Source of the DNA: Escherichia phage vB_EcoS_SD276
DNA length: 45,453 bases
Sequence record: OR911938.1
Reading direction: 5' to 3' (one strand)
This document shows positions 2,025 to 45,203 of this stretch, piece after piece (within the stretch, counting starts at the first letter, position 1; every line of letters begins with the position of its first letter). Below the pieces are notes generated by a model, which saw only the letters and a program-made list of their open reading frames with translations, was not told where the DNA came from and ran no database searches. A program made the position numbers and the translations under genes.

Positions 2025-3545
2025 ATGACCGTTAACGTTGACAACCAGCACCCGCTCTATGCGCGCATCGCGCCAGAGTGGAAAATGATCCGTGACTGCG
2101 TAGCAGGGGAGCGCGCCGTGAAGGCGTGCGGCCCATTATACCTGCCACACCCAGCAAGCGGCGACACCACCGACCCGAAATCACGGGCACGGTATAAGGC
2201 GTATAAGCAACGTGCTGTCTTCCTGAACGCCACCGCCCGCACACTGAATGCATTGTTAGGCGTTGCCTTCGCCAAGCCGGTGAGTATAGACCTTACTGGG
2301 GCAATGGCGGACCTGATTGATGACGTAGACGGCAGCGGTATGCCTCTGGCGCAACTCCTGCGCGGCGCTATGTCGGAAGTGCTGCAATCAGGCCGTGCCG
2401 GTTTTATGGTGGACTACGACCGCCAGGCTAACTTTGATGAACTTGGTAACGTAGTGCCGCAGACAGCCGCTGAGATGGCGGCACACCGCCCGCTTATCCG
2501 CCTGTATACGGCAGAGCAGATCATCAACTGGCGGCAGACCCACGGTGTCGACACGCTAATCGTGCTGAAGGAAACGGACGAAATCAGCACCGAAGACCCG
2601 GACGACTTCGCAAACCACGAGGTAACCATCTGGACCGAGCTTCGCATGATTGACGGCAAGGCACATGGTCGACGCTGGTTTTACAACGCGGACACGTCAG
2701 ACGTGCAGATGGACTTGCCGCGCGGCTTCACCCGCACCGACTTAGTGCCGCTGGTGGATGCCTCCGGTAATGCGCTTACTCAACTGCCATTTTGCTGGTG
2801 TGGTGCTGTGGACAACAACGCGACGCCGGACGCCGCACCGCTGGCGGATATTGCATCCATCAACATTAAGCACTACAACGCCGAAGCAGACGTCGCCGAG
2901 ATTGCGCACATTGTGGGCCAACCTACACTCATTGCGACCGGTCTGACCCAATCATGGGCCGATAAAAACCTGAAGGGCGGCATCGCACTAGGCGCGACTA
3001 AGGGCGTTATCCTGGGGCAGAACATGGACGCTAAACTTCTTCAGGCGGAGGAGCGCAACTTGTCTGTTGCCCTGTGTGAGCGTCGAGAATTGCAAATGGC
3101 TAAACTGGGCGCTGCCCTGGTTGAGAAAGGGACTGCACCTAAGACGGCAACCGAAGCGGCCTACGATGCGCAGACCGATAACAGTATCCTGTCGCTTATT
3201 GCCGGTAATGTTGAGAAGGCTTTCAACCGTGCGCTGCAAATCGTCCAGCTATTCACGGGAGACACCGCAACCCAGCAAGTCACGTTGAATAAGTTTTACA
3301 CCGAGATCACGGTAGACGCACAGCTTATGACCGCGATGATGGCAGGTGTGCAGACCGGTACTGTCCGACTGGCTGACTTTATCAAGTGGATGATGGCCCA
3401 GGGCGTCATTGATGACTCGCAAACCGTTGAGCAGGTGGAAGACGAATTGCGAAATCAGAATCCATTGCCTCAAATGTCCCCGGATGCGGTAGAATCTACC
3501 GAAGAAGACCCGGACAAGGTAGCGGACAATGGCGAAGACAATTAA
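2025..3545 (+). CDS. portal protein
   Basis: 506 aa ORF directly after terL, acidic C-terminal tail; size and synteny typical of portal. Confidence 0.75.
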   Translation: MTVNVDNQHPLYARIAPEWKMIRDCVAGERAVKACGPLYLPHPASGDTTDPKSRARYKAYKQRAVFLNATARTLNALLGVAFAKPVSIDLTGAMADLIDDVDGSGMPLAQLLRGAMSEVLQSGRAGFMVDYDRQANFDELGNVVPQTAAEMAAHRPLIRLYTAEQIINWRQTHGVDTLIVLKETDEISTEDPDDFANHEVTIWTELRMIDGKAHGRRWFYNADTSDVQMDLPRGFTRTDLVPLVDASGNALTQLPFCWCGAVDNNATPDAAPLADIASINIKHYNAEADVAEIAHIVGQPTLIATGLTQSWADKNLKGGIALGATKGVILGQNMDAKLLQAEERNLSVALCERRELQMAKLGAALVEKGTAPKTATEAAYDAQTDNSILSLIAGNVEKAFNRALQIVQLFTGDTATQQVTLNKFYTEITVDAQLMTAMMAGVQTGTVRLADFIKWMMAQGVIDDSQTVEQVEDELRNQNPLPQMSPDAVESTEEDPDKVADNGEDN

Positions 3546-4632: not shown

Positions 4633-4954
4633 ATATGCAGCGATTGGACTGGTTATCGGTCTGGCGGTAGGATTCTGGCTAGGCGACTCCTATCGCGCTG
4701 GCGTAGTGGCGGGGGCGGCGCAAGAAGCGCAAGCCCAAGCCCAACGGCAGCAAACTAAAGTTGTTGAGCGCTCCGTGCAGGCCGAACAAGCCCGCGACGT
4801 AGAATACCGGACTATCACGAAAGAGGTTGTTAAATATGTTACGCGCCCTAACCGCCCTGATTGTAGTTTTGATGCTGAGCGCGTGCGGATCAAGCAACGC
4901 GCCGTTGATGCCGCTAACGGAGTCGGCACTGCGACCGCCGTGCAAGTTCGATAG
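4595..4954 (+). CDS. i-spanin (Rz-like); start may be GTG at 4625
   Basis: N-terminal transmembrane helix IKYAAIGLVIGLAVGFWLG followed by Q/A-rich coiled-coil segment; contains an out-of-frame lipoprotein ORF. Confidence 0.5.
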   Translation: MHSLKTGGCGVIKYAAIGLVIGLAVGFWLGDSYRAGVVAGAAQEAQAQAQRQQTKVVERSVQAEQARDVEYRTITKEVVKYVTRPNRPDCSFDAERVRIKQRAVDAANGVGTATAVQVR

Positions 4955-5066
4955 ACCGTCCGCAGACCCCGACGAAGATTTGATGATTGACGTGAAAAAT
5001 ATGGAATGCGGGGCGAAGCTAAGGGCGCAGGTGCTGGAGTTGCAGCAAATAATTAAGGGGCCATAA
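4827..5066 (+). CDS. o-spanin (Rz1-like outer-membrane lipoprotein), overlapping the Rz-like gene in another frame
   Basis: Signal peptide with lipobox LSAC-G, short Pro-containing mature part, embedded in and extending past the i-spanin ORF. Confidence 0.5.
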   Translation: MLNMLRALTALIVVLMLSACGSSNAPLMPLTESALRPPCKFDRPSADPDEDLMIDVKNMECGAKLRAQVLELQQIIKGP

Positions 5067-5079
5067 TGGCCCCTTTTTC
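5057..5079. terminator. bidirectional intrinsic terminator (GGGGCC-ATAAT-GGCCCC + T5)
   Basis: Perfect 6-bp GC stem with T-run; sits between convergent genes. Confidence 0.65.
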
Positions 5080-5080
5080 G

Positions 5081-5845
5081 TTAGCGCGGAATGCCGCAAA
5101 TCTCGTTGAGTGTTTTCACATCCAGCGCCACCGCCGTGGATTTTGGCTTGTCCGGGTATGGGATGAATTGCTCAACTTCAGGCCATGCCTTAATCAGCTT
5201 CTTGTCAGTGTTGTGCAGGTCCAGCACACCGGTAACGGTGAGTTTGAACGCATCATACTTCGCGCGCAACTCGCGACGGGCCTTGTCGTTGCGGTCCAGG
5301 CGCTTACAGAAGTCATGGTCCGCCGGGTAATCAACGCGACCGCGTGGGAGATATATCGGCAGCGCTTTCCCATCCTCGTCCACTTCGCACACTGACGCGA
5401 GCATAACTGTCTCGAACCCCGGAACGATATCGCCGAGATCAGGCGCGAGCTTATTCATATATTTCTCTTCCCAGTATCCGCGATGTACGCGGTATTGGCG
5501 ACCGTCACCGCTCAAGGACAAGGTGCGAACATTTCCGCCTGCGTTGATTTCGAAAGTGGCGTCGTAAACGCTGCCGATACCTTTCGGGCGGTCGGTGTTA
5601 TAACTATACGTCGCCTTGTTGGTGTATACGCTGACGCCGTACATCTGCGACTGGTCATCGCGGATTGACAGGATATGCTCGCGTAGCGAGGCGAATGTGC
5701 GAATGCCGTCCGGCATACAGTCCAGCGTGATTGCGTACGCCAGGTCGCGAGAGTCCATCATGATTGTTTTGGCTACGGTAGCGATTTCGTGGTCGCGCAG
5801 GATGTTAGCCAGGATCTGATTTTTAATGTCTTTTGTCAGTCTCAT
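5081..5845 (-). CDS. hypothetical protein (254 aa), antisense cassette gene 2
   Basis: Long ORF on opposite strand to flanking late genes, RBS GAGGACACAAAA-ATG, ends at bidirectional terminator 5057-5079. Confidence 0.6.
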   Translation of the reverse strand: MRLTKDIKNQILANILRDHEIATVAKTIMMDSRDLAYAITLDCMPDGIRTFASLREHILSIRDDQSQMYGVSVYTNKATYSYNTDRPKGIGSVYDATFEINAGGNVRTLSLSGDGRQYRVHRGYWEEKYMNKLAPDLGDIVPGFETVMLASVCEVDEDGKALPIYLPRGRVDYPADHDFCKRLDRNDKARRELRAKYDAFKLTVTGVLDLHNTDKKLIKAWPEVEQFIPYPDKPKSTAVALDVKTLNEICGIPR

Positions 5846-5884: not shown

Positions 5885-6199
5885 TTAGTTGAATTTGATG
5901 TTGCCACCGGTGGAAGTTAAGCGGGCACATACAGCTTCAACGGCATCGACGCACATGAAATCGTTAAAGGCTTCGACCAGGGAGTTTATGAAAGATGCCG
6001 GAACCAGGCCGCAAGCCGGATTATCGAATATCGCGGAGTTGATCGCCGCTTTTGCCGCTTCAGAAGCATTCATGCTCTGGCACAGATTCAGCGCTTCAGC
6101 GTTACGCATTGCGTGAAAGGTAAAGGTATTCGCTACGGTAGCTTTATTGAAACGGGCCATTGCGGCGTCTACTGGAGTTGCTACGGTCATGTTAGTCAT
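5885..6199 (-). CDS. hypothetical protein (~105 aa), antisense cassette gene 1
   Basis: ORF with RBS AAGGAAGACAAA-ATG downstream of a sigma70-like promoter (6235-6264, minus). Confidence 0.5.
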   Translation of the reverse strand: MTNMTVATPVDAAMARFNKATVANTFTFHAMRNAEALNLCQSMNASEAAKAAINSAIFDNPACGLVPASFINSLVEAFNDFMCVDAVEAVCARLTSTGGNIKFN

Positions 6200-11828: not shown

Positions 11829-12142
11829 GCGGGACAAGCGGGACGTCCCGCTTGTCCCGCACCTCTAAAAACTGCATATTTACCCGCCAACATTGCATAA
11901 ATTAAAAGCGGGACAGGGTGCTGTCCCGATCTGTCCCGCCCACAAAATGTGAATATCTATTCAGTTTTCGTGCATAAAACAAACGGGACAAAAAGCGGGA
12001 CAGAATGGGGTGGGACAGATCGGGACAGCACCCTGTCCCCGCCAGTGCTGCCGCGGGTTTTAGCCGATCGGGACAGGCGGGACAAAGCCCAGTCTTTCAG
12101 ACTAGACGGGGGTCATTGGCCCCCCTCGTCTGAGACTGAATA
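11829..12142. repeat. GGGACA-rich non-coding element, copy A (32-bp perfect palindrome + repeat array + 53-bp hairpin module)
   Basis: At least 12 GGGACA/TGTCCC hexamers; palindrome GCGGGACAAGCGGGAC|GTCCCGCTTGTCCCGC at 11829-11860; module 12090-12142 identical to 40286-40338. Confidence 0.7.
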
Positions 12143-12206
12143 AGGTTTGTTTTAAATTCGCTGATACAATTAACGACGGCAACTGCATAAAAAGGGGGAC
12201 TGCATA

Positions 12207-16272: not shown

Positions 16273-17013
16273 ATGTTAACGAAAAAGGTTAAAAGCGATA
16301 TCGCCGCACACGTTGCGGCGTGTCTGCCGGAAGAAGCCTGCGGGTTGGTCGTCATGGTTGGTCGTAAGCAAGTATTCGTCCCATGTCTGAACGTATTCGA
16401 AGATCCGACCGGCGTGCGCTCGCGTAAAGACGCGTTTACTATTAGTGATATGGCCTGGATGGATGCCGAGGATATGGGCGACGTCGTGCGCGTAGTCCAC
16501 TCGCATCCGGGCCAGCGAGAGCTTACCCCCTCACTGGGCGACGTTAACGGATGCAACGGCAGCGGCGTAGTCTGGACCATCACTAACGAATATGGCGACT
16601 TTATCGAGATCGACCCTGAAGACCCTCCGCTGGTGGGGCGTCGATTTGTTCTCGGAATTACGGATTGTTACGGCCTAGTCATGGACTGGCACAAAAAGCA
16701 GGGTGTAAACCTGCCAGACTTCCGCGTGCCGTATAACTGGTGGGAGACAGGCGAAAATCTGTATATGGATAATTGGTACGGCGCGGGCTTCAGGGAGTGT
16801 GAGGAAAATACGCCGGGGGCAATGGTCATCATGCAGATTAGCGCGCCAGTGCCTAACCACGCTGGGATATTCCTTCCGGGCAACCAACTACTACACCATA
16901 TCTACGGCAGTCTGTCGAGCGTAGTCCCCTTCCGGGCAGGATTTTTCCGCGACAATGTGGTTAAATGGGTCCGTCATAAAGACCTACCGGGGAATATCAC
17001 AGAATGGCAATGA
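16273..17013 (+). CDS. tail tip assembly protein K-like (MPN/JAB + NlpC/P60-type)
   Basis: Metalloprotease-like motif VVHSHPG...S.GD and downstream Cys/His region; synteny. Confidence 0.65.
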   Translation: MLTKKVKSDIAAHVAACLPEEACGLVVMVGRKQVFVPCLNVFEDPTGVRSRKDAFTISDMAWMDAEDMGDVVRVVHSHPGQRELTPSLGDVNGCNGSGVVWTITNEYGDFIEIDPEDPPLVGRRFVLGITDCYGLVMDWHKKQGVNLPDFRVPYNWWETGENLYMDNWYGAGFRECEENTPGAMVIMQISAPVPNHAGIFLPGNQLLHHIYGSLSSVVPFRAGFFRDNVVKWVRHKDLPGNITEWQ

Positions 17014-17621
17014 CAACGTTTAAATTGTACGGCGTTTTAGGGCGTCGATTCGGTAAAGTGCATAAGCTGGACTGCTTCACACCGGGCGAAGGAATCACCG
17101 GCTTGTGTGTGAAGTTGCCAGGGTTACAAGACTTTTTAATGTCGGCCCACCTGGACAACATGATGTTCAAGGTGCGCAAAGGCGACCACATAATGACCGG
17201 TTATGATGAGCTTGGCGAGTTCCACGGCAACCGCGTCGTCACCATCGCGCCGGTTATGACTGGCGCAAAAAGAGGATTGGGCCAATTGCTGGCGGGTGTC
17301 GCGATCGTAGTGGCGTCGTTCTATACGGGCGGACTTGCTACTGCCGCTTTCGGGGCTTCGGCGGCAACCGCTGCCGCTATCGGTACGGCTACGTTTTCGT
17401 TCGGCGTGTCGATGGCGCTGGGTGGCGTTATGCAATTGCTGTCGCCTCAACCGAAAGGATTGCAGACACGGCAGGACGTGGATAACAAGGCTTCGTATGC
17501 GTTCGGGGGGCCGGTAAACACGACCGCGCAAGGGACCGCACTTGGTGTATTATGGGGCGAGCGTGAGATCGGCGGCGCTATTATTTCAGCCGGAATCGTA
17601 ACCGAGGATTTGAACGAATGA
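17004..17621 (+). CDS. tail assembly protein I-like
   Basis: 205 aa, hydrophobic Gly/Ala-rich C-terminal half; between K-like and J-like genes. Confidence 0.6.
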   Translation: MAMTTFKLYGVLGRRFGKVHKLDCFTPGEGITGLCVKLPGLQDFLMSAHLDNMMFKVRKGDHIMTGYDELGEFHGNRVVTIAPVMTGAKRGLGQLLAGVAIVVASFYTGGLATAAFGASAATAAAIGTATFSFGVSMALGGVMQLLSPQPKGLQTRQDVDNKASYAFGGPVNTTAQGTALGVLWGEREIGGAIISAGIVTEDLNE

Positions 17622-20600
17622 CGATTATTTACGACGTCACGGGCCATAAAGGCGGCGGCGGCAAACAGCACACCCCACAGGAGACGCCAGATAGCCTGCA
17701 TTCGCTGGCTAAAATCCGCATCTTGCTTGCGCTGGGAGAAGGTGAGTTCGAAGGTATTCCAGACCCTAACGAATTACGGCGGCGCGTATATCTGGACGGA
17801 ACACCGATCCAGAACGCAGACCTGTCAGAAAACTTCCCCGGAGCGCGTGTGGAGTTCCGCCCAGGCACACAGCACCAGGATGTGATCCACGGATTTTCAG
17901 CGGTGGAAAGTGAGCAATCTGTCGGCGTAAAACTGGAAAACGGCACGCCGTGGGTGCGCCAGATTAACGATACCAGTCTGGACGCCGTTCGCATTCGCAT
18001 CGGCATTCCGGCCCTGTACACTAACGAAGATAATGGCGACCTGGTGGGCGGGCGCATCGACTATAAGATCGTTGTGTATACGGATAACGCCGACCCGCGT
18101 GAGTTCAGATTCGCCGCCGTTGGTAAAACAATGTCGCTATATGAGCGCGACCACCGCATCGAATTACCGCCGAACGTGAATACCGGCTGGCGAGTGGAGG
18201 TGCACCGCATAACGGCAGACTCCACATCTGCGAAAGTGGTTAATGATATCCGTGTGCAATCCATCACGGAGATTATCGACGCCCGCCTGCGTTACCCGCT
18301 AACCGCGCTGTTGTTTGTGGAGTTCGACGCTAAAGCGTTCCAGAACATCCCGCGCGTATCCATTAAGTGCAAAGGTCGCAAGGTGTTGATCCCGAACAAC
18401 TACGACCCGATTAATCATACCTATTCCGGTGACTGGGACGGCACGTTTAAACGCGCATGGACGGATAACCCTGCGTGGCACTGGTATGATATTTGTATTA
18501 CTGAGCGCTTCGGCCTCGGTCGGCGTATCAAACCGCAAATGCTAAACCGATACGCGCTCTACCAGATTGCGCAGCGCTGCGATCAGTTGGTCAGCGACGG
18601 CAACGGTGGTCGAGAAATCCGCTTTAAGAATGATATGTACATTCAGTCACAGACGGATGCCTGGACCGTGCTTAAGGATTTAGCCGCCATCTTCGCCGGA
18701 ATGACCTGGTGGGGCAACCAGATGTTGAATATCGTCAGTGACCAACCGGTCGCAGCAGTGTCGCACACTATCACCAACGCATCTGTTATTGATGGGCGAT
18801 TCGACTACGCATCTGGCAGCCAGAAAACTCGCTATTCCACATTCGCGGTAGCATACGGCAATCCGAAAAACCACTACGATGACGCCATCGCAACGGGCCA
18901 GCGCGTCGAACTGGTGCGCCGCCATAAGATTAACCGTCTTGATATTACGGCGATCGGCTGTACGCGCGAGTCAGAAGCGCAACGCCGGGGGCACTGGGCG
19001 CTAATCTCAAACCAGCTTGACCAGCAAGTTAGTTTTAAGGTTGGCATGGAGGGGTTATTCTTTATCCCAGGTAGCGTAGTCGCGATCGCAGATACAAACA
19101 TTTCTGGCGGATTCGAGACTCGCGGCGGTCGGCTGTTGTCGGACCCTGGAACGCGTACCGTGCTGAACACGGACAGCGAAATCACGTTCCGCCCTGGCGA
19201 TAAGTTCCTGGTGCGCACCGATAGCGGTAATGTGGAGACTCGCGAAATCGCCAGCGTCAACGGCAACAAGGTCACTCTAAAAACCGCACTGGATGCCGAC
19301 CCGATTCCAGACCAACCGTTTTGCGTTGATGGCGACGATATCCAGTTGCAGAAATTCCGCATCACCGATCTGGAGTATGACGACTCTACGAGCACTTTCT
19401 CGGTGCGCGGGATTGAGTACAACGATAGCAAGTATGATGCCGTTGATAATGGCGCGCGCCTTGACCCAGGCATCTTTACGCAAGTACCAGACGGGGTAAT
19501 GAAGGGGCCGGAATCCGTGACCATCACCCCGTCGCAGATTTCATCGCAAGGACAGCTAATCACCAACGTGGATATTGTTTTCCCGCCGGTGAAGGACGCC
19601 GTGGTGTATGAAATCCAGTGGAGGCGTACTAGCCTGCAGAATATGGAGATCCAGTGGGGTAACGACTGGGTGAATATCCCTCGCACGGCGTCGAATGGGG
19701 CGCACATCCCTAACGTGTTCTCCGGTAACTATCAGGCACGCGTCCGCGCAATTGGTATGGGCGAAATCTCGTCCCCGTGGGTGTCTTCCGAGATCACGCC
19801 GGTGGAAGGTCGCCTCGGTGGGCTTAACGCACCAATCATCACCAACGCGATTTCGGGTCTGCACCAAATTTTGTGGAAGTGGAACCACAACAACGCCGCG
19901 ACGGATATCTCTTACACCGAGCTTGAAGTGCGCAAGACGGGTGCGGAGGAATGGAAGTTCCTAACCAACGTCCCATACCCGGGGGCGGAGTATGCGCAAA
20001 CGTCACTGGAGTTCGGGATCTATCAGCAGTTGCGCGCCCGTGTAGCGGATAAAATTGGCAACCTGTCGGACTGGTCGGCCCCGTTTGAAGGGCAGGTGAG
20101 CGACAAAGTTGACGAGTACATGAAGGGGCTTGATAACGAGTTCTTGACTTCCGAGGATGGTAAACACTTCCAGGAAGCTATTAACACGATCCCGCAAGGT
20201 ATCTATGAGTCTATGCTTACGGACGCCCAGCAGCTATTCAATGCCCGCGCCGAGTATAAAGGGATTTACGCGGAAATCACGGTGGCGTATAACGTGGCGG
20301 CGGACGCGCATAAAGCAGTAGCGCAACTGGAAACGTTGATCGGCACGCGCCTGGATGACGCCGAAGCATCAATCCACACGTTGCAGACTGCGCAAAGCAC
20401 ACATGAACAAGCGTTCGCCCAGTACCAGCAAACTGTTGCCGCTAAGTTTTCGGAACAGGAAGCAGCCATCCAGCAGGTACAAACGGCAACGGCGGACGTG
20501 GCTGGCGCGCTGGCGGAGTATAAGACCCAGGTCGCGGCGCAGTTCGGTCAGCAGTCCGCCGCGATCGAGCAGAAGATGACGTCTTCGTTTAACCATGCGG

Positions 20601-22059: not shown

Positions 22060-22281
22060 TTACCACTCCCGTGATTTAACTGATACTGTGCCTGAGAAGT
22101 TGCCGTCGCTATCGGAGGACAGCCCAGTGAATCGCATGTCTACATCTCCTGCCGGTACTTTTTGCCCGTCAACGTAGCGCAACATGCAGCTACCGTAAGC
22201 AACCGTAACGCAATCTCCGTTGTTGCGTTCTACGGCGCAACCGGACAAAAGGACCGCACAAATCATAATTAAAGTTTTCAT
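22060..22281 (-). CDS. small lipoprotein, candidate superinfection-exclusion (Cor/Llp-like) protein
   Basis: 73 aa; signal peptide MKTLIMICAVLLSGC with lipobox; own promoter-like element upstream; located next to tail fibre genes. Confidence 0.55.
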   Translation of the reverse strand: MKTLIMICAVLLSGCAVERNNGDCVTVAYGSCMLRYVDGQKVPAGDVDMRFTGLSSDSDGNFSGTVSVKSREW

Positions 22282-22312: not shown

Positions 22313-22340
22313 GTATTACACCGCTCAACCAGGATTGCAA
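22313..22340 (-). promoter_or_regulatory. promoter-like element upstream of lipoprotein gene (TTGCAA-N16-TAATAC)
   Basis: Hexamers on minus strand with TTGGTTGCAA motif. Confidence 0.35.
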
Positions 22341-26033: not shown

Positions 26034-26063
26034 ACTATAGTGCAACCAACCTATTGGTTGCAA
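26034..26063 (-). promoter_or_regulatory. sigma70-like promoter (TTGCAA-N18-TATAGT)
   Basis: Hexamers on minus strand, GGTTGC boxes in spacer, followed by leader hairpin. Confidence 0.5.
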
Positions 26064-26521: not shown

Positions 26522-26742
26522 TTTAAACTCTCAATAAGGGTGTAACGGGCGCTTCGCGCAGTAAAGGAGTTGCACACGAAATGGCAACGCTGAGTCATGA
26601 CAAGCCAACCGGTGAGGTCAAGGCCCATGATGTATTCGTGGCGAGACGCGCGCACCACACGATTGCGTCGCGGGTCAATACCGTAGTCTTTTTGCATTTG
26701 GTCTACTACCGCGGGGTCGCGGTCAACGATTAAGATATTCAA
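26518..26742 (-). CDS. hypothetical protein (74 aa)
   Basis: Overlapping start/stop with flanking genes in operon. Confidence 0.35.
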   Translation of the reverse strand: MNILIVDRDPAVVDQMQKDYGIDPRRNRVVRASRHEYIMGLDLTGWLVMTQRCHFVCNSFTARSARYTLIESLK

Positions 26743-27208
26743 GGAGTTCTCCTTCGCTCATTATTTCAATTTGTGCGCCGCCGAAGGGTGGCGCTTCGTC
26801 GAAGATTATCAATTGCTGGCACTTGTTATTGCTAGGCCCGACTTCGCCGGTGACGGCGTGTATAAATCTAATCCGCCAGTCCAGAAGAATTATCAGGTTT
26901 GCAGTCTTCCTGGCCAGCTTCGCCCACTTCGTCGACGTGTCCTGATTCAGTAGCATGACCGTCCGGCGTCCGTGCGCTGCGCACTTTACCCACGGCAGCG
27001 GATCGGAGTACGGCGGATTGCACCACTTCCACCCTTTCAACTCGGACCAGTCCACATCAAGCGCGCTGTGTTCTGCAGTGAAGTAACGCGGTAGCAGGTG
27101 GTTTGCATCGCTTGCCGCCATATCGTAACGGAATCGGTACTTCCGGCGAAGCGGTTTAAATAAAGCTGGTGGCGTGCGCCAGCTATCTTTTTGCTCACTC
27201 TTCAGCAT
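26723..27208 (-). CDS. DNA N6-adenine (or N4-cytosine) methyltransferase, phage Dam-like
   Basis: Catalytic tetrapeptide NPPY within WCNPPYSD; small size typical of phage Dam-family enzymes. Confidence 0.65.
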   Translation of the reverse strand: MLKSEQKDSWRTPPALFKPLRRKYRFRYDMAASDANHLLPRYFTAEHSALDVDWSELKGWKWCNPPYSDPLPWVKCAAHGRRTVMLLNQDTSTKWAKLARKTANLIILLDWRIRFIHAVTGEVGPSNNKCQQLIIFDEAPPFGGAQIEIMSEGELLEYLNR

Positions 27209-27659
27209 GGTCGGGATCTATCGCATACAGGGCAATCTTGTCACCTTTTTTCAGGATTCGCTGCAATCGCTGCGTCTCCGACACACCTAAAGGGCGCGCG
27301 TCCGGGTAGAAGTTGCCGTTTGTGGGGTTGCGCCACGCCATAAGCACCAGATCTTTCCGGTCGATCTTAGACTGGCGGCCCTTCGGTCGCACGTACTCCT
27401 CGGCCCGTTTGCAATGCTCGCGCAGACCTTCGGCGGTGACGCGGTTTAGTGCAACGCTGGTGGTGTATCCGGTGCGCTGCATAATCCCCATCAGTTCGAA
27501 AAGCAGTTCGAAGCGCTCCTCTAACTCTATGCGACGCTTTTCTTCCGTTTCATAGCTTAACAGGTAGGTATCCGCCAGCGCGTTCGCACGTTCGGCCTGT
27601 TCGCGGGCTTCGAGGCATTGCGCGGCCCAGTAATTTTTCTCTTCTTGTAAAATTTTCAT
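27195..27659 (-). CDS. hypothetical protein (154 aa)
   Basis: ORF downstream of promoter 27706-27734 (minus) and leader hairpin; start chosen at MKILQEE. Confidence 0.45.
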   Translation of the reverse strand: MKILQEEKNYWAAQCLEAREQAERANALADTYLLSYETEEKRRIELEERFELLFELMGIMQRTGYTTSVALNRVTAEGLREHCKRAEEYVRPKGRQSKIDRKDLVLMAWRNPTNGNFYPDARPLGVSETQRLQRILKKGDKIALYAIDPDHAEE

Positions 27660-27705: not shown

Positions 27706-27734
27706 AATATAATGCAACCAATATGATTATGCAA
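27706..27734 (-). promoter_or_regulatory. sigma70-like promoter (TTGCAT-N17-TATATT)
   Basis: Hexamers on minus strand, TTGGTTGCAT repeated twice. Confidence 0.55.
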
Positions 27735-30405: not shown

Positions 30406-30441
30406 GCCCCCAAAAATGGCGGGGCAAGCCCGCCGTATTAA

Positions 30442-30615
30442 TTATTTTTGCTCTGCGCGGTAGCGGCGCTGCCGTTCGCGCTCTTTTTTATTGCGGCACG
30501 ATTTGCACTCTGCCCGATACCCGTCCGGGCTTCGCGCAGTCTTACCGGTGTATTTATGGAACTGGGATAGCGGTTTAACGCAGCCGCAATTACTGCAACG
30601 TTTTTCTTCAATCAT
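30442..30615 (-). CDS. small zinc-ribbon protein
   Basis: CSNCGC...CKSC four-Cys pattern, basic C-terminus; downstream of promoter 30647-30675 (minus). Confidence 0.4.
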   Translation of the reverse strand: MIEEKRCSNCGCVKPLSQFHKYTGKTARSPDGYRAECKSCRNKKERERQRRYRAEQK

Positions 30616-30646: not shown

Positions 30647-30675
30647 ACTATACCGCTATGCGACCAATTCAGCAA
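30647..30675 (-). promoter_or_regulatory. sigma70-like promoter (TTGCTG-N17-TATAGT)
   Basis: Hexamers on minus strand upstream of zinc-ribbon gene. Confidence 0.45.
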
Positions 30676-33225: not shown

Positions 33226-33398
33226 TGCTTAATCCTCACTACGGCGTCGGCGCTGCCGATCATGGAGAAGATACCATCGGAAAGGGTAATCTCCTCGCCG
33301 TTGTTGCGAATCTCGGCAACTGTGAAATATTCGCCCAGCATTTTGGACCATACTTGCATTCCGACTTTTACTTCGCTGGCTTTAATACGCATTTTCAT
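33222..33398 (-). CDS. small hypothetical protein (58 aa)
   Basis: RBS AGGACA before ATG, stop overlaps polymerase start (ATGA); below 60 aa so absent from track. Confidence 0.35.
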   Translation of the reverse strand: MKMRIKASEVKVGMQVWSKMLGEYFTVAEIRNNGEEITLSDGIFSMIGSADAVVRIKQ

Positions 33399-33403
33399 TG
33401 TCC

Positions 33404-33431
33404 TATTAAAAAGCCCGCATTAAGCGGGCTT
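33404..33431 (-). terminator. terminator-like hairpin (minus strand) after SSB-like gene
   Basis: AAGCCCGC-TTAAT-GCGGGCTT followed by TTTAAT on minus strand. Confidence 0.45.
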
Positions 33432-34229: not shown

Positions 34230-34294
34230 TTTCCAATTCCTCATTTTCACATGTATCGGGGTTATTGTGAGCCACCCCGTTCGGCTTGGTTGCT

Positions 34295-34323
34295 AATCTA
34301 CTTGGTTGCGCCTAAGCGGTCAA
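34295..34323 (-). promoter_or_regulatory. sigma70-like promoter (TTGACC-N17-TAGATT)
   Basis: Hexamers on minus strand upstream of SSB-like gene, GCAACCAAG boxes. Confidence 0.5.
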
Positions 34324-37013: not shown

Positions 37014-37208
37014 GGTATATCTCCGATTGGTTAAGTTTAGGTGTCGACCATTAACTTCGTCGGTGGCCTTAACATAGTGCCCGGTTGCGCGTTCTCCCTT
37101 TCGGGTAGTGGACCGGGTTATATAATCACGGTTGGGAATCCTGACACTTCGATCCGGCCCCTGCGTTGCCCCTCTCCAGTTTGCTTCCTGCATCCTGTCG
37201 ACGAGGTG

Positions 37209-37237
37209 AATATTAGATTGGTTGCAGAAGGGAGTCA
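37209..37237 (-). promoter_or_regulatory. leftward early promoter (TTGACT-N17-TAATAT)
   Basis: Hexamers on minus strand in the divergent control region, GCAACCAATC box in spacer. Confidence 0.55.
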
Positions 37238-37352: not shown

Positions 37353-37381
37353 TTGACACCGTGCAGTTTTGGGTGTAGTTT
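37353..37381 (+). promoter_or_regulatory. rightward early promoter (TTGACA-N17-TAGTTT)
   Basis: Hexamers on plus strand ~30 nt upstream of HTH gene RBS. Confidence 0.5.
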
Positions 37382-37412
37382 CGTTGGTCATTAGCCAACA
37401 GGAGACTGAATT

Positions 37413-37742
37413 ATGAATATCAAAGAAGCAATTGAAGTGTTATCTAATGCAATCCGCGGCGAAGCGGGTAAATCCTGGTATTACACAAATGCGGTGGATA
37501 CTCTGTTATTTGAAGTGTCCAGATTATCGCGTGCTGAGAAGGAGCTTACCGCGAAGCTGGAATTACTCAACGGCACGGCAGCAAGCAAGCTGCAAAAGCA
37601 CAATGAAGAAATGGAAGAATACAAAAAACAGGTTATCCGTTTGCGCGCCGAGGGCAAATCCTGGGCAATGATCGCTGAGTTGACAGGAATTAATCAGAGC
37701 ACCGTGCGCTCCTGGGTACGCAATAATAAAACTTCGAAGTAA
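37413..37742 (+). CDS. HTH DNA-binding protein, putative transcriptional regulator
   Basis: C-terminal helix-turn-helix-like segment GKSWAMIAELTGINQSTVRSWVRN; first gene after rightward promoter. Confidence 0.5.
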   Translation: MNIKEAIEVLSNAIRGEAGKSWYYTNAVDTLLFEVSRLSRAEKELTAKLELLNGTAASKLQKHNEEMEEYKKQVIRLRAEGKSWAMIAELTGINQSTVRSWVRNNKTSK

Positions 37743-37752
37743 GGCAACGGCA

Positions 37753-40017
37753 ATGAGCTTAATTAAATTCGCGGTAACACGACCCGCTAAAAAAGGCGAA
37801 AAAGCCAGGGCGGAAAACTTCCAGATGACCACCGATGAATTTTTCGAATTTATCAATGACGCGAAAGAAATCTCCTCGGTGCATATCAACAAGACGGAAG
37901 ATAAAGCCGAGTATGCGCGCCGCAAGCGTAAGGCCGATGGCATCGTGGCATATACCAGTGACGGCTTACGCCGCAAGACCAGTGCGGTGGACCGCTCGAT
38001 CCTGTTCTTCGATATTGACCGTACCGACACCCGCACCCTACGCCGCTGCCGTAAGGCTTTCATCGACGCGGGGCTGGAGCATGTATTCCACACAACCACC
38101 GGCGACCGCCACCCACTGAAAGGCGGAACGCGTTGCGCTCGCTTCCTGGTACTCACTGACAAGCCTGTCCCGGCTGAAGACCTGGGCCGTGTCCAGTATG
38201 CGCTATTACACCAACTTGGTCTGTCAGATGTGGACTTCGACGATTGTACGAAGGACACAAACCGTCTTATGTACCTGCCTCACCAGCAGTCTGTCATTAA
38301 GTGCCACCACGGCAAGCGCGCCAATGTGCGGCGTCTGCTCCGCCTGGCGGACAAGCTGGGGGTGGAGAAAGAGGAAGTACGCCGCGAGCTTACCCAGGGC
38401 GACGACGCAGTGGCGGACGGTATTCTGGACTGGTGCTTCCAGGCAGGATTCGAGGAGTTATCTTCCGGTCGCGGTTATGAAGTTCCGTGCCCGAACGAGC
38501 ATCTGCACAGCGGCGAAGGGTCGACGGCTATCATGGTTAAGGATGGCGAGATCCGTTTCAAATGTATGCACACCGGCAACGAGTGTTGCTCGGAGCTAAA
38601 TAGACACCAGCACCTTGCGCTACGTCTTATCGGGATACCGGACCACCTGAACGTCGAGCCGCACAACATGTCCCGTAAGCAAATCGCCGCCATCCTCCCA
38701 GGGCTGGACGACGAGGAAGTCGAATCCTTATATGAACATATTGTTGATGCGGTTGGCGACGGCGAAGAATACGGCGTGTGCACCGATGCGGATCTGGATA
38801 ACGAGCCGGTTGCGCTGTTCAGTAAGCACGACCCGATCATCGAGGGGTTGATTAACTTTAAATCGACCTGGTATATGGCGGGTGAGTCGAATATCGGCAA
38901 GTCCTTCTACGTGCTGGGGCAGATGGGCGCGGTTGCCGCGGGGATCCCGTTTGGTGGTGCGAAGGTAGTCCAGTCGCATTGCTTCTATTTTGATGCGGAA
39001 GGCGGCGAAGCCTCCAACCAGCGCAAAGAAGCATTGCAGATTAAATATGAGCACGACCTGGACAAGCTGCACATTATAGACCTGCAATCCCGCGGCTGGG
39101 ATATCACCAGCAAGTCCGGTTTGCGCGAAGTTATCAGCTTTATCAACCGCACTGCTAACGGCGAACCGGTTGGCCTGGTGGCGTTCGACTCACTCAACCA
39201 GACTGTTGCGCTGCGGTCCGCCGATGCTAAACCGTTTGACGAGAACAACGCCAGCGATATGGGTGAAGTGGTCAAAGCGCTGAAAGCCATTGCGGAAAAT
39301 ACAGGTGGCAGTGCGGGCGTCATCCACCACCCGGCGAAGGGTGCAAACGGCAGCAGATCTCCCCGTGGGTCCGGCGCACTGCATGGCGCTGTCGATTCTG
39401 CGTTCTTCCTGGAACAGCCGGACGACAACCAGCCGGGACAACTTAACCTGTACCACGAAAAATCACGTAACGGCATCAAGCAAGCGCCGCGTGGCTTCGT
39501 CCTGCTCAAGTGCAAGGTGGAGGTGGATCTCCGCAAGTCAGAAGCGTTCGCGTCGCACCAGTCCACCAGCACCGGGCCGGACTTCGGAGACGTCGTTGCC
39601 GGTTGGGACGTCAAACCAATTGCGTCCACCCCGCGCGATGAGACTCTATACCTCGTACCGGTCGCCCTGGAACCGTTCGCTATAGAACAGGCGAAGGCGG
39701 CGGGCAAAGCCGCAGTTAAGGAAGAAAACGCCGCCGGTCCGCGCAACGAAAAAGAGAAAGTGCTTTATGCGGCCCTGGAAAAACTGATGGAAGATAACCC
39801 GAACCATACCGGCTTCAGTAAATCGGCAATTGTCCGCCAGGCTGGACTCGCGAAGGGTGGTACTTCGACGAAGGCAATCGACGATATGGTCGAGCGCGGC
39901 GTGATTGGTTTCTATTCAGATCCGCACACCGGGGCCATCTATGGGTCGTCGAATTTAGTCATCAAATCGGATATCCCCATAACGCTTTCGGCGACCGATG
40001 ATGACCTGAACGATTAA
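37753..40017 (+). CDS. primase-polymerase (AEP-like) / helicase-ATPase fusion protein
   Basis: N-terminal DxD motif ILFFDIDRTD, central Cys/His zinc-binding region, C-terminal RecA-like ATPase with Walker A GESNIGKS and Walker B LVAFDSLNQ. Confidence 0.7.
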   Translation: MSLIKFAVTRPAKKGEKARAENFQMTTDEFFEFINDAKEISSVHINKTEDKAEYARRKRKADGIVAYTSDGLRRKTSAVDRSILFFDIDRTDTRTLRRCRKAFIDAGLEHVFHTTTGDRHPLKGGTRCARFLVLTDKPVPAEDLGRVQYALLHQLGLSDVDFDDCTKDTNRLMYLPHQQSVIKCHHGKRANVRRLLRLADKLGVEKEEVRRELTQGDDAVADGILDWCFQAGFEELSSGRGYEVPCPNEHLHSGEGSTAIMVKDGEIRFKCMHTGNECCSELNRHQHLALRLIGIPDHLNVEPHNMSRKQIAAILPGLDDEEVESLYEHIVDAVGDGEEYGVCTDADLDNEPVALFSKHDPIIEGLINFKSTWYMAGESNIGKSFYVLGQMGAVAAGIPFGGAKVVQSHCFYFDAEGGEASNQRKEALQIKYEHDLDKLHIIDLQSRGWDITSKSGLREVISFINRTANGEPVGLVAFDSLNQTVALRSADAKPFDENNASDMGEVVKALKAIAENTGGSAGVIHHPAKGANGSRSPRGSGALHGAVDSAFFLEQPDDNQPGQLNLYHEKSRNGIKQAPRGFVLLKCKVEVDLRKSEAFASHQSTSTGPDFGDVVAGWDVKPIASTPRDETLYLVPVALEPFAIEQAKAAGKAAVKEENAAGPRNEKEKVLYAALEKLMEDNPNHTGFSKSAIVRQAGLAKGGTSTKAIDDMVERGVIGFYSDPHTGAIYGSSNLVIKSDIPITLSATDDDLND

Positions 40018-40127
40018 AATTTGCGCGCATTGGTTGCCGATATGGGAATTCCCATATCGCTAAAAGACTAAAATTTGCGCGCATTGGTTGCCATTTTGAG
40101 TGTTTTTAGCTGGTCGCATTGGTTGCC
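40016..40127. repeat. GCATTGGTTGCC iteron-like direct repeats (3 copies) with inverted copy at 40398-40409
   Basis: AAAATTTGCGCGCATTGGTTGCC at 40016-40038 and 40070-40092, GCATTGGTTGCC at 40116-40127; flanks 20-bp perfect palindrome GATATGGGAATTCCCATATC (40039-40058). Confidence 0.6.
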
Positions 40128-40153
40128 GTGTAGTGTAAATATAATGAATAGTT

Positions 40154-40338
40154 ATGCAGTTTTATTGCATAAAGTAAGCGGGACAAAAAGAGGGACAGAC
40201 CAGGGGCGGGACAAAGCGGGACAGCACCCCCGTCCCGCCCCGGATGACGCGGCCTGGCGGGGAGCGGGACAGGCGGGACAAACCCCAGTCTTTCAGACTA
40301 GACGGGGGTCATTGGCCCCCCTCGTCTGAGACTGAATA
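40154..40338. repeat. GGGACA-rich non-coding element, copy B
   Basis: TTGCATAAA-N-GCGGGACA array ending in the same 53-bp module as copy A (identical by eye). Confidence 0.7.
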
Positions 40339-40493
40339 AAATCCGGGATTGCAAAATACACGGCAGCACATTGGAAATCGCGGTCGTCGACGAACTAGGC
40401 AACCAATGCGAGATGCGGAATGGTGGGTGGAAAATGCAGTTTGCATTTGCAACGGATAGCGATCGACTTTTTCATACGCGTGATTAATATTGG

Positions 40494-40522
40494 TTGCATT
40501 CGTGCCCGCACCCTGCTAGATT
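40494..40522 (+). promoter_or_regulatory. sigma70-like promoter (TTGCAT-N17-TAGATT)
   Basis: Followed by GGTTGCACACCAAC, the same motif that follows the -10 of promoter 6235-6264. Confidence 0.5.
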
Positions 40523-40550
40523 GGTTGCACACCAACATGAGGACCGAACA

Positions 40551-40877
40551 ATGAAAGCGATTATCTGGAATTACGCAATGGCGATGGCGAAGGCACAAGA
40601 AGCGGCGGAGTTCGCCGGTGAGGGGGCGGAAGCAGTAGAAAGACTATCGGCCGCGTGGGCTGTTGTGCGGGTAACGCAGCAGGCCATCGCCGTTATGCTT
40701 GAGCGCCGCTTCGACACGATGGATGAGATCCAGCCACTGGCGAACGCCATCCAGGACTACGCGCTAGCATTCTCCCGCGAGCGCCTGGCATATCGCTTCG
40801 GGATCGGTGAGACGGCAGCGACAAACATCGCCAGGATTAAAGCCCAGCGCGAACTATTCGCCCAGCTTGCGAAATAA
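40551..40877 (+). CDS. hypothetical protein (108 aa)
   Basis: ORF with promoter 40494-40522 and RBS GAGGA upstream. Confidence 0.45.
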   Translation: MKAIIWNYAMAMAKAQEAAEFAGEGAEAVERLSAAWAVVRVTQQAIAVMLERRFDTMDEIQPLANAIQDYALAFSRERLAYRFGIGETAATNIARIKAQRELFAQLAK

Positions 40878-43823: not shown

Positions 43824-43830
43824 AACCACA

Positions 43831-43857
43831 AGCCCGGAATCGACCGGGCTTTTTATT
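43831..43857 (+). terminator. intrinsic terminator after Ig-like protein gene
   Basis: AGCCCGG-AATCGA-CCGGGCT followed by TTTTTATT. Confidence 0.6.
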
Positions 43858-43859
43858 GC

Positions 43860-43889
43860 TTGACTTGCAACCAACATAGACGCCATACT
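43860..43889 (+). promoter_or_regulatory. possible promoter (TTGACT-N18-CATACT)
   Basis: Weak -10; lies after terminator 43831-43857 and before phosphoesterase gene. Confidence 0.3.
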
Positions 43890-44060
43890 GCGACCAACCA
43901 AGAAGAGGAGTAATCAAGATGGCACGTAAAGACGTTTGGGTATTGGCAATCTGGACCGCCGCGGCTTTTATCGGCATGGTTATTTGCGAATTGAGATAGC
44001 CCGCCGCCATATGGACCGTGGTATATTGTCCACGGTCCAATAATCAGGAAGTAATTAAAT

Positions 44061-45203
44061 ATGCACCCGCAAACCAAAATTACCGACGAGCAATTGATCG
44101 CAGAAATTCAGGCAGGGACTACGGTTAAAGAGATTGCGAAGAAATACGGCATTGCACTTCGTAACGTCTACATGCGCAAAGCCCGCCTGTCTAAAAAAGG
44201 GATTGGTCACGGCAATGATGCAGTGATCCGTAAGCGCGTTGCAGATGGGTTTGGAGTTAAGCGCGTGTCTGCCCTGGTGCGCGGCAATGGCGAAGAGGTC
44301 ATGTCGTGGGTCATCACTGAGCAGGACAAGGAGCGCCAACTCGAAGCCATGCGCGCTGTTGTCGAGGGTATGAACAGCGAAATCACACCGGCAGCGCCAG
44401 TAAACGCCCCGCCAGTACCGGTCCATGCGCTCGACTTGCTCAACCTGTACACCGTGTCAGACTTTCACCTGGGAATGCTGGCATGGGGTGAGGAGACTGG
44501 CGAAGACTGGGATATGGCGATTGCTGAAGACCTGTTCTACCGCTGGTTTGTCGAAGCCTTCGCCCGCGCACCGGACGCAGGAACTGCCGTTATCAATATC
44601 CTCGGGGATATGGCCCACTTTGACAGCCTTGATGCCGTCACACCAGCAAGCGGTCACGTACTGGACGCCGACACACGATACCAGAAACTTGTCCGCTATA
44701 TGATTCGCATGGTGCGCAACGTCGTCGAACTTGCCCTGCAAAAACACCACAAAGTCAAACTGCTAATCGTCCAGGGTAATCATGACGAGTCAGGCATGAT
44801 TTGGCTTGCTGAGATGTTCAACACGCTGTACGAGAACGAGCCGCGCGTCGATGTGGATACGTCCCCGGACGTCTACAAAATGGTGCAGCACGGTAAGACC
44901 ACGCTGTTTTTCCACCACGGGCACAAAGCGCGATTCGATGCTATCGAGCAGGTTATGATCGCCAAATTCAGACAGGCGTTCGGGTCGAGCGAATACAGCT
45001 ACGCGCACGTAGGCCATTTGCACCACCAGAAGATTGTTGAATCCCGCAACATGATTGTTGAACAGCACCGGACGCTCGCAGCGAAAGACGCCTACGCCAG
45101 TCGTGGCGGTTGGATGTCCGGTCGCAGCGCAAACGTCATCACCTATAGCGCCAACTACGGAGAAGTAGCGCGCTTAACCATTAGCCCGGAAATGTTGAAA
45201 TGA
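44061..45203 (+). CDS. calcineurin-like metallophosphoesterase with N-terminal HTH
   Basis: Phosphoesterase motifs DFHLG, GDMAHFD, GNHDE, HHGH, GHLHH; N-terminal TVKEIAKKYGIALRNVYMRKAR. Confidence 0.6.
   Translation: MHPQTKITDEQLIAEIQAGTTVKEIAKKYGIALRNVYMRKARLSKKGIGHGNDAVIRKRVADGFGVKRVSALVRGNGEEVMSWVITEQDKERQLEAMRAVVEGMNSEITPAAPVNAPPVPVHALDLLNLYTVSDFHLGMLAWGEETGEDWDMAIAEDLFYRWFVEAFARAPDAGTAVINILGDMAHFDSLDAVTPASGHVLDADTRYQKLVRYMIRMVRNVVELALQKHHKVKLLIVQGNHDESGMIWLAEMFNTLYENEPRVDVDTSPDVYKMVQHGKTTLFFHHGHKARFDAIEQVMIAKFRQAFGSSEYSYAHVGHLHHQKIVESRNMIVEQHRTLAAKDAYASRGGWMSGRSANVITYSANYGEVARLTISPEMLK

Follow-up and report, generated by a model that had tools for sequence, protein, structure and literature searches.

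A conserved asymmetric word in the promoters of a Dhillonvirus, predicted to be the site of a phage DNA-binding protein

What is the function of the short repeated sequence that accompanies the promoters of Escherichia phage vB_EcoS_SD276? The DNA analysed here, the window (sequence record OR911938.1, 45,453 nucleotides), is an almost complete Dhillonvirus genome of 45.4 kb from the HK578/SSL-2009a/JL1 group of lytic E. coli siphophages. With many records it shares ~93% identity, and it is colinear with SSL-2009a, whose annotation, together with a list of open reading frames (ORFs), provided the gene map. A preliminary description had pointed to a phage-wide family of promoters at nine intergenic sites, each accompanied by GGTTGC or its complement, and had suggested that this hexamer binds a phage or host factor or extends the promoter. 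We find that the conserved unit is an asymmetric word of 9-10 bp, (A/G)TTGGTTGC(A), of which GGTTGC is the core, and that this word, hereafter the box, occupies fixed registers in the promoters of several phage lineages. We propose, with a probability of roughly one half, that the box is recognised by a sequence-specific DNA-binding protein which the phage encodes and which controls most of the sigma-70-type promoters, a small zinc-ribbon protein being the best candidate for this role. As far as sequence comparison can tell, the full form TTGGTTGCA is most likely the landing site of a phage regulator of transcription, and perhaps of replication too. That the putative binder is encoded by the phage rather than by its host seems to us rather probable, because the flanking and core letters of the box shift between lineages, a pattern more readily expected of a phage factor that co-evolves than of a single host factor.

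Dhillonviruses are frequent therapeutic and model coliphages, represented in the BASEL collection and used in phage engineering, and their transcription programme is undescribed. Our literature searches, which covered Dhillonvirus promoters and transcription, the box motif and the genome paper of Edwardsiella phage eiAU, found no description of the box, and the GenBank record of Sodalis phage SO-1 annotates GGGACA repeat regions A and B, not the box. A conserved word at nearly all promoters would offer a ready promoter map, a means of controlling phage gene expression synthetically and a bait for the regulator.

Sequence, registers and conservation of the box

The box is a short asymmetric site with tens of copies that are mainly intergenic. 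The window contains 19 exact copies of TTGGTTGC where 1.3 are expected, and 10 copies of TTGGTTGCA where 0.38 are expected, a number equalled in none of 100 shuffled sequences. The hexamer GGTTGC, as which the motif was first drawn, is real and enriched but too short, and on its own it is only modestly over-represented (49 copies, against 32 +/- 6 in shuffles). When the copies are aligned, TTGGTTGC is invariant, with TTGGTCGC tolerated, A is favoured on both flanks, and there is little information further out. Sixteen of the 19 copies lie in non-coding DNA, which makes up ~8% of the window (binomial P ~1e-14), and another two fall within the final codons of a gene, such that 18 of 19 are intergenic or at a gene end; the lone exact box deep in coding sequence, at 16880-16887 on the minus strand in a tail gene, is probably a chance occurrence. 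Furthermore, an unbiased k-mer count made without reference to the motif ranks GCAACCAA first among the intergenic 8-mers.

About 15 of the 19 copies sit in promoters, and they do so in fixed registers. Registers were counted on 75 box copies from the window, the Dhillonvirus LM40P1, eiAU and Klebsiella phage VLCpiS11a, for which ~0.4 copies are expected at each offset by chance. In 13 of the 75, a -10-like hexamer stands at +27 of the box start; the box then begins at -39, its TTGCAN serves as the -35, and the spacer is 17 nt long. In another nine the hexamer stands at +10, such that the box begins at -22 and ends 2 nt before the -10. Finally, the hexamer stands at -4 or -5 in 16 copies, where the box begins at -8 or -7 and extends from the end of the -10 over the start site. 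A generic sigma-70 consensus scan of the window gave no enrichment over shuffles; the promoters are recognisable only with the box as anchor.

The claim of a phage-wide promoter family with an over-represented box is upheld in silico by hexamer pairs at 17-18 nt, by position upstream of genes, by registers 20- to 30-fold above background and by phylogenetic footprints. All nine of the sites first listed carry at least one box and a sigma-70-like hexamer pair, with -35- and -10-like elements 16-18 nt apart, and each lies upstream of, and is co-oriented with, a gene or operon whose ribosome-binding site (RBS) and start codon follow 30-200 nt downstream. The strict degenerate pattern originally given for these sites was too narrow: it fits 6235, 26034, 27706 and 40494, but the other five each depart from it in one hexamer (AATACT at 22313, TTGCTG at 30647, TTGACC at 34295, TAATAT at 37209 and CATACT at 43860). 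Similarly, the box had been placed in the spacer or just downstream of the promoter, which holds at some sites, but many promoters use the box itself as their -35 hexamer (TTGCAN). The nine fall into two classes. The six promoters with a forward box (6235, 22313, 26034, 27706, 30647 and 40494) have a poor -35 (TTGCAN, matching at 3-4 of 6 positions) and a good -10. The three with an inverted box (34295, 37209 and 43860) have a canonical -35, TTGAC(T/C), and carry the box in the spacer or directly after the -10.

The box is conserved well beyond the window. Every Dhillonvirus examined, including LM40P1 (~80% identity) and SO-1, has 19-23 copies, and in alignments of orthologous intergenic regions from six Dhillonviruses, the most distant at 80% identity, the spacers vary but neither the boxes nor the hexamers do, a combination that we read as the footprint of selection on the box itself. 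For example, the 22313 and 26034 promoters are rebuilt in LM40P1 into the same two-box form, with a 17-bp offset. Nor is the box specific to the phage of the window, since it is common to at least three other genera or lineages. In eiAU (Eiauvirus), whose primase is 45% identical, TTGGTTGC has 23 copies, is the top intergenic word and occurs in the same promoter architectures; VLCpiS11a (Guernseyvirinae) and Serratia phage Smarc3 have 13 copies each; and contig L147 from IMG/VR has the variant TATGGTTGC in two promoters. The four lineages Dhillonvirus, eiAU, VLCpiS11a and Smarc3 lack DNA similarity to one another. The letters of the box vary with lineage, reading ATTGG in Dhillonvirus, GTTGG in eiAU, VLCpiS11a and Smarc3, TATGG in L147 and TTGGCTGC in Salmonella phage PhiSTP2, which has no exact copy and three copies of ATGTTGGCTGC. 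The hosts of the box-bearing phages are all Enterobacterales (Escherichia, Shigella, Sodalis, Edwardsiella, Klebsiella and Serratia). K1G and Bas72 have three copies each, all but one of them within annotated genes, and the eight copies in T1 are all coding, none in a promoter context. As an element common to phages that have exchanged most of their other genes, the box could serve as a marker of regulatory compatibility in mosaic genomes.

A cluster of boxes follows the gene for the helicase-primase (37753-40017, plus strand). Four copies of CGCATTGGTTGCC, at 40030, 40084 and 40119 on the plus strand and at 40399 on the minus strand, occupy 40030-40406, beginning 13 nt after the stop codon (40017) and flanking an AT-rich stretch and a GGGACA repeat module. 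All four, which lie in the gap at 40017-40550, were missing from the preliminary list of copies, as was the coding copy at 16880. All five box- or variant-bearing lineages examined have a cluster where the helicase-primase gene ends, at its 3' end or just beyond. It comprises nine copies in eiAU (26868-27633), spans 4793-5374 in VLCpiS11a and holds the three variant boxes of PhiSTP2 (16923-17254), which are its only copies; in Smarc3 (39411-39532) the coding sequence of the primase itself holds four TTGGTTGC copies, on the antisense strand and within its final 200 nt. In K1G and Bas72, which have more divergent primases, another repeat occupies this position. We suggest that the cluster at 40030-40406 is an origin-like or regulatory hub, and that the region is probably an origin; GC skew in the window tracks gene orientation and transcription and marks no origin.

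Two wider scans complete the survey. When IMG/VR was scanned for pairs of boxes no more than 30 nt apart, the matches listed were mostly coding tandem repeats, along with one Dhillonvirus contig and an unrelated array on contig L108. A scan of 185,579 species genomes for TTGGTTGCA-N6-10-TTGGTTGCA gave 120 scattered, chance-like matches in unrelated taxa, with no Enterobacterales among the matches listed, a result that says nothing about a host regulon. The L108 array (2720-3210) belongs to an unrelated virus of high G+C content and consists of ~20 copies of (C)TAATTGGTTGCATC and the related (N)TGGTTGCAT in 500 bp of intergenic DNA, directly upstream of a gene whose product starts with a segment resembling a helix-turn-helix (HTH). 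Its word could have become similar to the box by convergence, or the array could be distantly related to the same binding module.

Candidate binders and competing explanations

How might a protein bound at the box act? Because the copies overlie the -35, the part of the spacer by the -10, or the end of the -10 together with the start site, we propose that it would be in competition with host RNA polymerase or would shift the polymerase's position. The outcome would be phage-wide, dose-dependent control, mainly in the form of repression or shut-off; where the box replaces a poor -35 (TTGCAN), stimulation of the polymerase would also be possible. The cluster at the helicase-primase end would act as a high-occupancy hub, probably in a replication-origin region, that links replication and transcription. 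A bolder version, unlikely as a whole, is that in lytic enterobacterial siphophages (Dhillonvirus, Eiauvirus and some Guernseyvirinae-like phages) the zinc-ribbon protein or an origin-binding end of the helicase-primase reads the 9-bp word both at the origin and in the three registers of nearly all promoters. If this were true, occupancy of the origin hub would be coupled to promoter activity, a stoperator-like system without lysogeny in which replication and transcription are wired through one DNA word, and a word that also defined the origin would show how a small lytic phage using the host polymerase times its genes.

Which protein could read the box? We compared the gene content of box-bearing phages with that of phages lacking the box, and scanned 26 of the window's proteins against Pfam and PHROGs. 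Among the proteins compared, the zinc-ribbon protein is the best candidate binder on the evidence of sequence and gene content. It is 57 residues long, has a CxxC...CxxC pattern and a basic tail, carries the PHROG name 'Lar-like', and is encoded at 30442-30615 on the minus strand. This frame (ATG start, RBS GAGGG) was found by comparison with eiAU, in which an unannotated ORF (17627-17785) encodes a 62% identical protein; the mechanical ORF list had the wrong frame (30438-30611, TTG start). A standalone zinc-ribbon gene is present in every box-bearing lineage as well as in PhiSTP2; in the two phages without the box, it is fused to a nuclease (Bas72) or missing (K1G). In Dhillonvirus, VLCpiS11a, L147 and Smarc3 the gene immediately follows a promoter that carries a box, and in eiAU it is one gene removed from such a promoter. 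Its PHROG relatives are zinc-finger modules on HNH and endonuclease VII nucleases, and one relative matches the end of a sigma-factor family.

Several points weigh against our proposal. The co-occurrence of zinc-ribbon protein and box rests on ~8 genomes and is confounded by their relatedness, and PhiSTP2 has the protein yet only three variant boxes. Since boxes are present in most promoters, the one upstream of the zinc-ribbon gene is weak evidence of autoregulation. Direct reading by the polymerase could account for the fixed registers as well, and the TATA core of the -10 is palindromic, such that some inverted registers mirror forward ones and amount to one site. The gene-content comparison revealed no HTH regulator common to the box-bearing lineages. 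In addition, a global repressor is unusual in a strictly lytic phage.

Two other kinds of protein were considered and set aside. The HTH protein of the window (109 residues, 37413-37742, plus strand) has a LuxR-like C-terminal HTH that matches HTH_23 and Sigma70_r4_2 above the Pfam cut-offs. It occurs in Dhillonviruses only and was rejected as a universal binder, eiAU having no homologue even at an E-value of 50; the eiAU protein P858_54 has a similar layout (C-terminal HTH_7, E 0.013) and no detectable similarity to the Dhillonvirus HTH protein. Likewise, the XRE proteins encoded upstream of the primase in eiAU and VLCpiS11a occur in PhiSTP2 too, which has only three variant boxes.

The third candidate, the helicase-primase, with its AAA_25 core and variable C-terminal domain, is the basis of the alternative that best withstands the evidence, although we still consider it unlikely. 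The boxes would be iterons, sites of the C-terminal domain at an adjacent origin, and the promoter copies would be secondary, coupling transcription to replication. This fits the position of the cluster in all five lineages, the confinement of PhiSTP2's three variant boxes to it and the different repeat that accompanies the more divergent primases of K1G and Bas72, as well as the AT-rich stretch and second repeat family that lie beside the cluster in the window. It also fits the C-terminal 110 residues, the most variable part of the protein, which are predicted to form a helix-helix-helix-strand-strand (H-H-H-E-E) arrangement as in a winged helix. This domain may be a winged helix: the AlphaFold2 single-sequence model of the C-terminus has the H-H-H-E-E pattern, and there is a weak match to the winged-helix family Ribosomal_S25 (E 0.17). 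The model is of low confidence (pLDDT 45.6), however, and does not establish the fold, and the alignment shows no conserved recognition helix among phages with an identical box; both points weigh against the domain as the binder. Moreover, ~15 of the 19 copies occupy fixed registers in promoters, which is atypical of iterons, and the GC skew follows transcription rather than marking an origin.

Does the box need a dedicated reader at all? It could be an extended element read by the host sigma-70 holoenzyme, or part of a promoter cassette copied around the genome by descent, and we rate this somewhat below the iteron explanation. The TTGCAN of the box does act as a -35 at 17 +/- 1 nt from a good -10 in 13 of the 75 copies, and all nine sites resemble promoters that would function unaided. 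The TTGG part, however, is invariant though it falls outside the -35 hexamer and the known sigma-70 contacts, and the box is kept, when the spacers are not, across phages with no remaining DNA similarity. Copies also occur in the spacer, at the start site, in inverted orientation, in hexamer-free clusters and within the Smarc3 primase coding region, without a role in polymerase recognition. Recognition by the polymerase alone is insufficient because boxes are inverted in promoters with a canonical -35 and clustered where matching hexamers are missing. Of the two roles first suggested, binding of a factor is the probable one; the inverted copies and the promoter-poor helicase-primase cluster go beyond what an extended promoter element would explain.

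That a host protein of the Enterobacterales has been exploited by these phages, for example a GntR/FadR-type regulator with the half-site TTGGT, we judge improbable. The hosts are indeed all Enterobacterales, no dedicated regulator family is common to all of the box-bearing phages, and two sites read TTGGT-N5-ACCAA; ATTGGT is the half-site of the PdhR, UxuR and ExuR operators. The flanking and core letters of the box nevertheless differ between lineages, even within one host genus, and the E. coli phages K1G, Bas72 and T1 do not use it. GntR palindromes lack the conserved TGC(A) of the box, most copies of which are single and asymmetric, and the N5 spacing contrasts with the N2-N3 of GntR-type operators. 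Likenesses to the sites of CytR, PdhR, NtrC and sigma-54 and to the DnaA box were rejected because conserved positions or spacing do not fit.

The box is very improbably a target of DNA modification whose methylation state switches promoters: a Dam-like adenine methylase (26723-27208) accompanies the box in each of the four lineages tested and is missing from PhiSTP2, K1G and Bas72, but T1 has a related enzyme and no promoter boxes, a 161-residue Dam-family enzyme is known for GATC or relaxed specificity and not for a 9-bp asymmetric site, which it is probably too small to read, SO-1 and Smarc3 lack Nmad5, the other modification enzyme considered, yet keep the box, and a C5 methylase does not co-occur with it.

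Comparison with known systems

Is the box a member of a described class of site? We do not file it as a stoperator, a MotA box or a P4 alpha iteron because each of these has at least one defining feature that was looked for and not found (the Ogr system is excepted). Stoperators, the 13-bp asymmetric repressor sites scattered over the genomes of cluster A mycobacteriophages such as L5 and Bxb1, offer an instructive parallel. Like the box, they are short and asymmetric, number ~20-30 copies per genome, are nearly all intergenic, in part lie on promoters, and are conserved within a group with lineage variants. In contrast to stoperators, which run one way with respect to transcription, the box points with transcription in six promoters and against it in three (34295, 37209 and 43860), and most boxes hold fixed registers inside the core promoter. 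Stoperators also serve the immunity repressor of temperate phages, whereas the phage group studied here is lytic and no integrase or immunity-repressor family was recognised among the window proteins scanned or in the annotations of relatives.

Similarly, the T4 middle promoters, at which MotA and AsiA appropriate sigma, resemble the forward -39 register, and that register only, in that a phage box takes the place of the -35, set at a constant distance from a good -10. The MotA box, TGCTTtA, differs from the box described here in sequence and is centred near -30, not near -35, and the extra copies in the spacer, at the start site and in inverted orientation are unlike it; no MotA or AsiA family match was obtained from the 26 window proteins scanned, which are not all of those encoded. 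The octamer iterons of P4 alpha at ori and crr are likewise repeated asymmetric sites of 8-9 bp beside a fused primase-helicase gene whose product has a C-terminus that, in our phage, is perhaps also a winged helix. They are confined to ori and crr, whereas ~15 of the 19 box copies lie in promoters elsewhere in the genome.

If the zinc-ribbon protein were the binder, it would resemble the late activators Ogr and Delta of P2 and P4 as another tiny four-cysteine zinc protein controlling many promoters. The sites of these activators, unlike the box, are dyads of the form TGT-N12-ACA centred near -55; sequence similarity is absent, and Pfam gave no match to that family. Finally, the operators of GntR/FadR regulators (PdhR, UxuR/ExuR) and the CytR octamer GTTGCATT share letters with the box, namely ATTGGT and, in a few copies, GTTGCAT(T). 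The palindrome and spacing of these operators are absent, and the conserved positions of TTGGTTGC are not those read by these proteins: against the form TTGGT-N2/3-ACCAA, only two sites come close, with N5, and the rest are single and asymmetric.

Individual promoters and accompanying elements

The promoters are described here one by one; all lie on the minus strand except P40494 and P43860. In P27706 (27706-27738), a box at 27738-27731 gives the -35 TTGCAT (27734-27729), followed by a 17-nt spacer and the -10 TATATT (27711-27706); a second box (27721-27714) lies in the spacer and ends 2 nt before the -10. Its predicted targets are 27195-27659, the Dam-like methylase gene and the genes downstream. 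The -10 is directly followed by a terminator-like hairpin with a T run (27704-27683), at which read-through from the upstream operon would stop and inside the stem of which P27706 transcripts would begin. Likewise, G+C-rich 5' hairpins lie downstream of P26034 (26000-26030) and P34295 (34240-34290).

P6235 (6229-6264) combines the -35 TTGCAT (6264-6259), an 18-nt spacer and the -10 TATATT (6240-6235) with a box in the spacer (6250-6243) and another at 6236-6229 that continues as GGTTGCACACCAAC. Its predicted targets are 5885-6199 and 5081-5845, whose product has an Nmad5 domain (Pfam E 1e-58). In a Dhillonvirus, a point mutation in the Nmad5 gene has been linked to escape from the Tmn defence system, and deletion of Nmad5 is tolerated (PMC11846954). 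P22313 (22312-22344), upstream of the Cor-like lipoprotein gene at 22060-22281, has a box at 22344-22337 that gives the -35 TTGCAA (22340-22335), a 17-nt spacer and the -10 AATACT. In P26034 (26034-26063), the -35 TTGCAA (26063-26058) falls within an inverted box (plus strand, 26054-26061), the -10 is TATAGT (26039-26034), and a forward box (26049-26042) ends 2 nt before it; together the boxes make up a perfect inverted repeat of 9 bp, TGCAACCAA-CCTA-TTGGTTGCA. P30647 (30647-30679), directly upstream of the zinc-ribbon gene, takes its -35 TTGCTG from a box at 30679-30672, has a variant box TTGGTCGC at 30667-30660, and ends in the -10 TATAGT (30652-30647). P40494 (40490-40536, plus strand) has a box at 40490-40497 that gives the -35 TTGCAT (40494-40499), a 17-nt spacer, the -10 TAGATT (40517-40522) and a second box (40521-40528) that overlaps the -10 and continues as ACACCAAC; it would drive 40551-40877 and the lysis genes. 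The preliminary observation that one sequence follows the -10 at two sites is correct: TA(T/G)ATTGGTTGCACACCAAC occurs at exactly 6235 (minus strand) and 40494 (plus strand).

The inverted-box class begins with P34295 (34286-34323), upstream of the genes for a gp2.5-like single-stranded DNA-binding protein (SSB) and DNA polymerase; it has the -35 TTGACC (34323-34318), the -10 TAGATT (34300-34295) and two boxes on the plus strand, one in the spacer (34302-34309) and one lying 1 nt after the -10 (34286-34293). P43860 (43860-43897, plus strand) stands just 3' of a terminator (43830-43851) and would drive 44061-45203 and on towards the terminase genes; between and after its -35 TTGACT (43860-43865) and -10 CATACT (43884-43889) lie an inverted box (43867-43874) and the likewise inverted variant GCGACCAA (43890-43897). 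P37209 (37210-37238), which we take as the promoter of the leftward early operon, has the -35 TTGACT (37238-37233), the -10 TAATAT (37215-37210) and an inverted box on the plus strand in the spacer (37218-37225). In the long 5' leader of this operon, 52 bp (37126-37177) are 92-94% identical to unannotated DNA of the T1-like phages slyngel, tunus and Phunderstruck, which are otherwise unrelated to the window at the DNA level. The stretch has no Rfam or tRNA match, as is true of the window as a whole, and the entire leader is not unusually structured (z = -0.45).

A box-free promoter, TTGACA-17-TAGTTT at ~37355-37383, would drive the HTH and helicase-primase genes. At its predicted start site lies a palindrome, GTTGGTCATTAGCCAAC (37384-37400), which is kept in four of five aligned relatives (not CHD5UKE2) and whose half-site TTGGTCAT resembles the box.

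Lastly, further repeats surround the helicase-primase gene. A second intergenic family, (G)CGGGACA, has 11 of its 13 exact copies between genes. It is organised in two modules of ~200 bp, 87% identical to each other (11829-12143 and 40150-40345), that share the long terminal hairpin AGACGGGGGTCATTGGCCCCCCTCGTCT and correspond to repeat regions A and B of the SO-1 record; the first stands before the tape-measure gene, the second after the helicase-primase gene. Module B folds better as RNA than shuffled sequences (z = -3.7), and with TATAAT just upstream (40141-40146) it may be transcribed. In Smarc3, a separate repeat, TGTGCGGAA/TTCCGCACA, has several copies directly after the primase stop (39620-39690). 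We note, in addition, that Dhillonviruses, PhiSTP2, K1G and Bas72, with or without the TTGGTTGC box, all carry G(T/C)GAATAGTT(ATGCA) 3' of the helicase-primase gene (40145-40160 in the window, 17195-17240 in PhiSTP2 and 33339-33407 in K1G), an element of this region that is conserved more deeply.

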